Positions 36,122 to 37,768 of a stretch of DNA of 64,000 nt are shown here, one piece after another. Both the position numbers and the translations under genes were made by a program. Within the stretch, counting starts at the first letter, position 1. Every line of letters begins with the position of its first letter. The notes beneath the pieces are model-generated. The model was not told the DNA's origin. It saw nothing but the letters and a program-made list of their open reading frames with translations, and searched no databases. The DNA comes from Escherichia coli (GTDB lineage: Bacteria > Pseudomonadota > Gammaproteobacteria > Enterobacterales > Enterobacteriaceae), in NCBI RefSeq assembly GCF_011045215.1, contig NZ_CP049201.1; one strand, written 5' to 3'.

Positions 36122-37768
36122 ATGAATGGCGCACAGTGGGTGGTACATGCGTTGCGGGCACAGGGTGTGAACACCGTTTTCGGTTATCCGGGTGGCGCAA
36201 TTATGCCGGTTTACGATGCATTGTATGACGGCGGCGTGGAGCACTTGCTGTGCCGACATGAACAGGGCGCGGCAATGGCGGCTATCGGTTATGCTCGTGC
36301 TACCGGCAAAACTGGCGTATGTATCACCACGTCTGGTCCGGGAGCAACCAACCTGATAACCGGGCTTGCGGACGCACTGTTAGATTCTATCCCTGTTGTT
36401 GCCATCACCGGTCAAGTGTCCGCACCGTTTATCGGCACTGACGCATTTCAGGAAGTGGATGTCCTGGGATTGTCGTTAGCCTGTACCAAGCACAGCTTTC
36501 TGGTGCAGTCGCTGGAAGAGTTGCCGCGCATTATGGCTGAAGCATTCGACGTTGCCAGCTCAGGTCGTCCTGGTCCGGTTCTGGTCGATATCCCAAAAGA
36601 TATCCAGTTAGCCAGCGGCGACCTGGAACCGTGGTTCACCACCGTTGAAAACGAAGTGACTTTCCCCCATGCCGAAGTCGAGCAAGCGCGCCAGATGCTG
36701 GCAAAAGCGCAAAAACCGATGCTGTACGTTGGTGGTGGCGTGGGTATGGCGCAGGCAGTTCCTGCTTTACGAGAATTTCTCTCTACCACAAAAATGCCTG
36801 CCACCTGCACGCTGAAAGGGCTGGGCGCAGTTGAAGCAGATTATCCGTACTATCTGGGAATGCTGGGAATGCATGGCACCAAAGCGGCGAACTTCGCGGT
36901 GCAGGAGTGCGACTTGCTGATCGCCGTGGGTGCACGTTTTGATGACCGGGTGACCGGCAAATTGAACACCTTCGCACCACACGCCAGTGTTATCCATATG
37001 GATATCGACCCGGCAGAAATGAACAAGCTGCGTCAGGCACATGTGGCATTACAAGGTGATTTAAATGCTCTGTTACCAGCATTACAGCAGCCGTTAAATA
37101 TCAATGACTGGCAGCAACACTGCGCGCAGCTGCGTGATGAACATTCCTGGCGTTACGACCATCCCGGTGACGCTATCTACGCGCCGTTGTTGTTAAAACA
37201 ACTGTCGGATCGTAAACCTGCGGATTGCGTTGTGACCACAGATGTGGGGCAGCACCAGATGTGGGCTGCGCAGCACATCGCCCACACTCGCCCGGAAAAT
37301 TTCATCACCTCCAGCGGCTTAGGCACCATGGGTTTTGGTTTACCGGCGGCGGTTGGCGCACAAGTCGCGCGACCGAACGATACCGTCGTCTGTATCTCCG
37401 GTGACGGCTCTTTCATGATGAATGTGCAAGAGCTGGGCACCGTAAAACGCAAGCAGTTACCGTTGAAAATCGTCTTACTCGATAACCAACGGTTAGGGAT
37501 GGTTCGACAATGGCAGCAACTGTTTTTCCAGGAGCGATACAGCGAAACCACCCTTACCGATAACCCCGATTTCCTCAAGTTAGCCAGCGCCTTCGGCATC
37601 CCTGGCCAACACATCACCCGTAAAGACCAGGTTGAAGCGGCACTCGACACCATGCTGAACAGTGATGGGTCATACCTGCTTCATGTCTCAATCGACGAAC
37701 TTGAGAACGTCTGGCCGCTGGTGCCGCCTGGTGCCAGTAATTCAGAAATGTTGGAGAAATTATCATGA
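36122..37768 (+). CDS. ilvG: acetolactate synthase II large subunit, intact
   Basis: Uninterrupted 548-aa [37 protein letters not shown]... Confidence 0.95.

Follow-up and report, generated by a model that had tools for sequence, protein, structure and literature searches.

Organization of the ilv locus

The window, by which we mean the whole 64,000-nt stretch of Escherichia coli contig NZ_CP049201.1 that was analysed, carries an ilvLXGMEDA operon with the following features.

35592..35883, + strand: promoter and upstream activating region of ilvLXGMEDA (delimited by homology with K-12)
35884..35982, + strand: ilvL leader peptide, 32 aa (NCBIfam NF007744, 81.9 bits; 0 nt differences from K-12)
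~36003..36038, + strand: attenuator terminator hairpin, then a run of eight U (RNA fold; identical to K-12)
36069..36119, + strand: ilvX, a 16-aa small ORF directly upstream of ilvG (sequence and position as K-12 ilvX, b4669)
36122..37768, + strand: ilvG, catalytic (large) subunit of acetohydroxyacid synthase (AHAS) II (ATG start, 548 codons, intact; ORF list)
37765..38028, + strand: ilvM, AHAS II small subunit, 87 aa (NCBIfam NF008362, 133.9 bits, cut-off 68)
38048..38977, + strand: ilvE, branched-chain aminotransferase, 309 aa, intact (0 aa differences from K-12)
39042..40892, + strand: ilvD, dihydroxy-acid dehydratase, 616 aa, intact (5 aa differences from K-12; exact match to WP_164475908.1)
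40895..42439, + strand: ilvA, threonine deaminase, 514 aa, intact (2 aa differences from K-12)

The order ilvL-attenuator-ilvX-ilvG-ilvM-ilvE-ilvD-ilvA, with ilvY convergent, is the gene order annotated in MG1655, GF4-3 and PapM-32-1. At 42436-42439, the stops of ilvA and the convergent ilvY share 4 nt, an overlap also annotated in PapM-32-1; K-12 instead has a 51-nt ilvA-ilvY spacer and an IlvY that is one residue longer (...PNHK vs ...PNH).

The ilvG frame shares its start with the annotated K-12 gene and contains no internal stop between 36122 and 37768, coordinates on which the ORF list and the initial annotation agree exactly. Random sequence would run for 548 codons without a stop with a probability of about (61/64)^548, or ~4e-12. 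The predicted protein matched the NCBIfam equivalog model for the 'acetolactate synthase 2 catalytic subunit' (NF006524) with 1071 bits against a cut-off of 738, residues 1-547 aligning to positions 1-547 of the 548-position profile, while the NCBIfam models for other isozymes (AHAS III and AHAS I type) each scored below their own cut-off. Pfam analysis returned the three domains of ThDP-dependent enzymes, namely PF02776 (TPP_enzyme_N, PYR; residues 1-115), PF00205 (TPP_enzyme_M, central FAD; 186-321) and PF02775 (TPP_enzyme_C, PP; 374-522), with scores far above the gathering scores. An identical protein is on record as 'acetolactate synthase 2 catalytic subunit [Escherichia coli]' (WP_164475907.1 / QIF14579.1). 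In the protein collection clustered at 90 % identity, the cluster holding this IlvG also contains 1041-aa Bacteroides CusA/CzcA efflux proteins, including its representative; this is a clustering artefact of the collection and not biology.

The DNA between the ilvL start codon and the ATG of ilvG does not differ from K-12, and the ilvL reading frame is rich in Ile, Val and Leu codons. The attenuator folds at -21.6 kcal/mol (z = -3.6), with none of 200 shuffled sequences equally stable. An internal C-C mismatch in the stem caused a simple promoter/terminator scan to miss this + strand attenuator. Rfam family RF02744 matched the leader over its full model (35813-36102, + strand, 157 bits), with the attenuator inside the match, and appears to correspond to the ilv leader/attenuator; the family is named 'Rev39_5p_UTR', a name that refers to soft-rot Enterobacteriaceae. 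Upstream of the leader, the promoter and activating region (35592..35883) has 11 substitutions relative to K-12. Over 308 nt, it matches the alleles of O55:H7 USDA5905 and strain 510016 exactly, and it is a common natural variant. Downstream, the ilvM ATG overlaps the ilvG TGA (ATGA), and IlvM has no amino acid differences from that of K-12.

An integrative element in yifB

Around 520 bp upstream of ilvL, yifB is interrupted by an element with the following features.

22947-35374 (element about 22962-35359): integrative element of ~12.4 kb, splitting yifB/comM at about codon 53-57
21598-23001 and 35352-35561, - strand: yifB fragments on either side of the element
33956-35206: integrase
32551-33351: Ant-type anti-repressor
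30765-32558: 597-aa protein with a C-terminal repressor-like domain
28148-29896: D5-type primase
24396-25067 and 25132-25725, - strand: two adjacent ORFs matching positions 115-328 and 402-544 of the 545 in phrog_6216
23862-24389: small-terminase-like protein

A 15-bp core (ATCCGCTATT[T/G]ATAA) is duplicated on either side of the element, and the insertion leaves YifB without its first ~52 residues. The gene content of the element resembles that of a phage satellite or PICI-like island. The two adjacent ORFs match consecutive parts of one PHROG family, suggesting that they are one gene broken in two. Related elements occur in pig ETEC/STEC genomes (~94 % identity, 65-87 % coverage), and a few of these matches extend over the yifB flanks too.

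Comparison with the K-12 allele

In MG1655 (reference region 3946000-3958000), the orthologous ilvG (b4488) is annotated as a 1645-bp pseudogene. The initial annotation had described the 548-codon frame as uninterrupted and had named realignment with K-12 ilvG as one check beforehand. MAFFT alignment of the two genes returned a single 2-bp gap, at gene positions 977-978 of K-12, and no further indel, so that the only indel is K-12's own loss and the described frame stands. The gap was put at 37098-37099 of the window, although its placement is ambiguous inside the following repeat.

37098..37101, + strand: ATAT run at the K-12 frameshift site (K-12 lacks one AT, the window has both; alignment and junction probe)

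At the lesion, K-12 reads AAT CAA TGA (N326, Q327, stop 328) and terminates after 327 codons, whereas the window continues from L325 through AAT ATC AAT GAC TGG (N326, I327, N328, D329, W330). The K-12 stop codon has been placed at nucleotides 982-984 (PMC8605374), consistent with the numbering used here. In the report of the E. coli W genome, the K-12 defect is attributed to 'two separate base pair insertions' (PMC3032704). Our alignment gives a single 2-bp deletion in K-12, and the wild alleles compared are also 1647 bp long; we did not adopt that description.

Apart from the deletion, 40 substitutions separate the two genes (97.6 % identity). Of these, 33 are synonymous and 7 non-synonymous, giving seven amino acid differences between the window IlvG and a frame-repaired K-12 IlvG. 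At four of these seven positions (S146, T222, K486 and P494), the window carries the residue usual in E. coli, and it is K-12 that deviates.

Prevalence of intact ilvG in E. coli

We searched 5,426 complete E. coli genomes with an 80-nt probe spanning the K-12 deletion junction. It matched at ≥99 % in only 340 of them, indicating that an intact ilvG is the norm. Three genomes sampled from this ≥99 % band were laboratory K-12 or O16:H48 strains; in all other sampled genomes, the junction alignment spanned 82 nt, the intact form. Whole-gene matches in 60 evenly spaced complete genomes gave the same picture, with a 1645-bp span in just four K-12-type records and the 1647-bp form common to every other record. 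An intact ilvG is thus present in ~94 % of complete E. coli genomes, and the broken copy is a peculiarity of K-12. This agrees with the treatment of intact ilvG as the normal state in strains W, B and Crooks (PMC3032704).

Lesions of ilvG besides that of K-12 do exist. In NZ_CP068680.1 (strain NCCP12480), the ilvG match covers the first 58 % of the gene only, and the features annotated under the match are 'thiamine pyrophosphate-binding protein' and ilvA, suggesting a natural deletion from the 3′ end of ilvG through part of the operon.

One might also ask whether the intact frame stems from a sequencing or assembly error, for instance a miscalled indel within a homopolymer or short repeat. The site in question is such a repeat (ATAT), and the closest relatives have complete genomes assembled from hybrid nanopore/Illumina data (PMC7643976). 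However, an independent short-read assembly (a Logan contig of SRR11014969) is identical to the window over 5,647 bp (34122-39768), ATAT site included, and encodes the same protein; the intact frame therefore does not stem from a fault in a single assembly. As the 1647-bp form is also that of all records of other than K-12 type in the 60-genome sample, an artefact is exceedingly improbable, and we discarded this explanation on the strength of the independent assembly.

Lineage of the host

The initial annotation had further held that the host is not derived from K-12. No genome among 5,425 complete E. coli exceeded 99.0 % identity over either ilvG or the 24.7-kb segment at 35300-60000, and the exact ilvG allele was found in none of the complete E. 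coli genomes (best match 99.0 %). The only record of the exact IlvG protein, and likewise of the exact IlvD, is on one contig of 5,409,430 bp, compared with 4,641,652 bp for MG1655. The nearest relatives are Gambian wild-animal isolates, PapM-32-1 from a baboon and GF4-3 from a guinea fowl, and the host's lineage within E. coli has been sparsely sampled.

Among the wild-type alleles, those of GF4-3 (WP_171460084.1) and O55:H7 USDA5905 (WP_001012623.1) likewise encode 548-aa proteins, with the same operon position and ATGA overlap as in the window. Each has 98.5-99.0 % nucleotide identity to the window ilvG and five amino acid differences from its product.

A host of K-12 descent would need to have recovered the gene through reversion (ilvO/ilvG+ type) or transduction of a donor ilv region. 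Such ilvG+ derivatives are known and arise readily under selection: evolved MG1655 lines regain the frame by deleting T982 or G983 and become valine-resistant (PMC8605374). A transduced fragment could in principle contain a 64-kb window. The described revertants (982delT or 983delG), however, lose one more base from the K-12 sequence, for a net loss of 3 bp from the wild-type length, with 547 codons on a K-12 backbone, whereas the window allele has 548 codons, the ancestral AT and a diverged backbone. The divergence is not confined to the 40 substitutions in ilvG, as the best complete genome over the 24.7-kb segment reached 99.0 % with K-12 included among those compared. Identity to K-12 is 98.1-98.5 % over yifB and the regulatory flanks (98.1 % for the yifB flank), and the 12.4-kb element in yifB has no K-12 counterpart. 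The marks expected of the K-12 lineage, namely the 2-bp ilvG deletion or the 1-bp deletion of revertants, near-identical flanks and a ~4.6-Mb chromosome, are absent, and the exact IlvG and IlvD lie on a contig of 5.41 Mb rather than 4.64 Mb. Codon count and divergence led us to reject a K-12 revertant, and we regard K-12 ancestry by either route as having next to no likelihood. The 40 substitutions, the divergence over 24.7 kb, the yifB element and the 5.41-Mb chromosome support the view that the host is not K-12-derived.

Evidence for a probably functional AHAS II

The predicted IlvG retains E47, F109, M250, R276, V375, D428, N455, M460 and W464. From the AHAS II mutagenesis literature, we take Glu47 to be catalytic, D428 and N455 to form the ThDP-Mg motif (GDG...N) and F109, M250, R276, V375, M460 and W464 to be substrate-specificity residues. 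In an alignment of 140 diverse AHAS homologues drawn from a 50 %-identity representative library, E47, G72, R276 and V375 were invariant (140/140), and the other key columns were nearly so (F109, 139/140; D428, 135/140; N455, 136/140). The dN/dS of ilvG was 0.05-0.14 against seven other alleles, and the gene is under purifying selection.

A functional AHAS II, as the initial annotation had proposed, is the reading best supported by the sequence, because of the full-length IlvG equivalog match, the catalytic residues, the intact IlvM, the leader/attenuator and purifying selection; as far as such evidence reaches, that proposal holds. On the basis of established knowledge, enzymatic activity, valine insensitivity and valine-resistant growth may be inferred on good grounds. 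Among the AHAS isozymes, AHAS II is the one insensitive to valine (PMC8605374, citing Lawther 1981), and repair of the K-12 ilvG frame was sufficient for growth at 1 mg/ml valine (PMC8605374). The K-12 frameshift, moreover, has a polar effect on the genes that follow (PMC8605374, citing Lawther 1981 and Parekh & Hatfield 1997).

Under this reading, ilvG would be transcribed from the ilvLXGMEDA promoter under ilvL leader-peptide attenuation, and its translation would be coupled to that of ilvM through the overlap of the ilvM ATG with the ilvG stop. IlvG would serve as the ThDP/FAD/Mg2+-dependent catalytic subunit of acetohydroxyacid synthase II and, together with IlvM, would condense pyruvate with pyruvate or 2-ketobutyrate without valine feedback inhibition, so that excess valine would not keep the cell from making isoleucine. 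The operon would also be spared the polarity that the K-12 frameshift exerts on ilvEDA.

Substitutions private to the allele

Comparison with 15 other Escherichia/Shigella alleles, including E. albertii and Shigella, revealed two amino acid substitutions seen in none of them.

36326..36328, + strand: codon 69, ACC (Thr), A69T within the motif GVCI[A>T]TSGPGATN (0/15 other alleles)
37670..37672, + strand: codon 517, TCA (Ser), P517S (0/15 other alleles)

A further substitution, A221S, occurs in one of the 15. Five nucleotide changes are private to the window allele, three non-synonymous and two synonymous; the non-synonymous share is greater than in pairwise comparisons, albeit on tiny numbers.

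These substitutions raise the question of whether the frame is intact and yet A69T and/or P517S lower the stability or activity of the enzyme. A69T adjoins the conserved TSGPGATN loop and P517S precedes a C-terminal beta-strand, and both replace the majority residue of the 140 diverse AHAS (Ala in 80 at column 69, Pro in 93 at column 517); their absence from the other alleles and the three-to-two ratio of private changes point the same way. Nevertheless, both columns vary in nature: column 69 is Thr in 9 of the 140 homologues, isosteric Val in 37 and Ser in 9, while column 517 is Ser in 7, Ala in 13 and Thr in 12. Neither substitution touches an invariant or catalytic residue, and the IlvG equivalog score lies far above its cut-off. 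An impaired enzyme is thus unlikely. The seven differences from K-12 were also considered as damage and dismissed, as four are the common E. coli state and the private ones fall within the natural variation of the 140 homologues.

It is less probable still that the allele with A69T and P517S encodes an AHAS II with altered stability, kinetics or inhibitor sensitivity, or that the satellite-like element perturbs ilv expression; the rarity of the substitutions is all that speaks for such a reading. A search of solved structures returned none of AHAS II in which to place residues 69 and 517. The closest match was E. coli AHAS I IlvB (6LPI; E = 6.7e-161, residues 2-544). Like the plant and yeast AHAS structures, IlvB shares the fold family and catalytic motifs of the window IlvG, but these proteins are paralogues, or orthologues of other isozymes, and AHAS I is valine-sensitive.

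Significance of an intact ilvG

Taken together, the window ilvG is very probably a natural wild-type allele of a non-K-12 E. coli, encoding the AHAS II catalytic subunit. Intact wild-type ilvG is already known, and the finding, although correct, is an ordinary one that describes the textbook state. An intact ilvG is the default in E. coli and of little importance in itself, serving here merely as a lineage marker that the source is not a K-12 laboratory strain. For the biology of the strain, the prediction is that it would grow with valine present and would express ilvEDA without the polarity defect of K-12.
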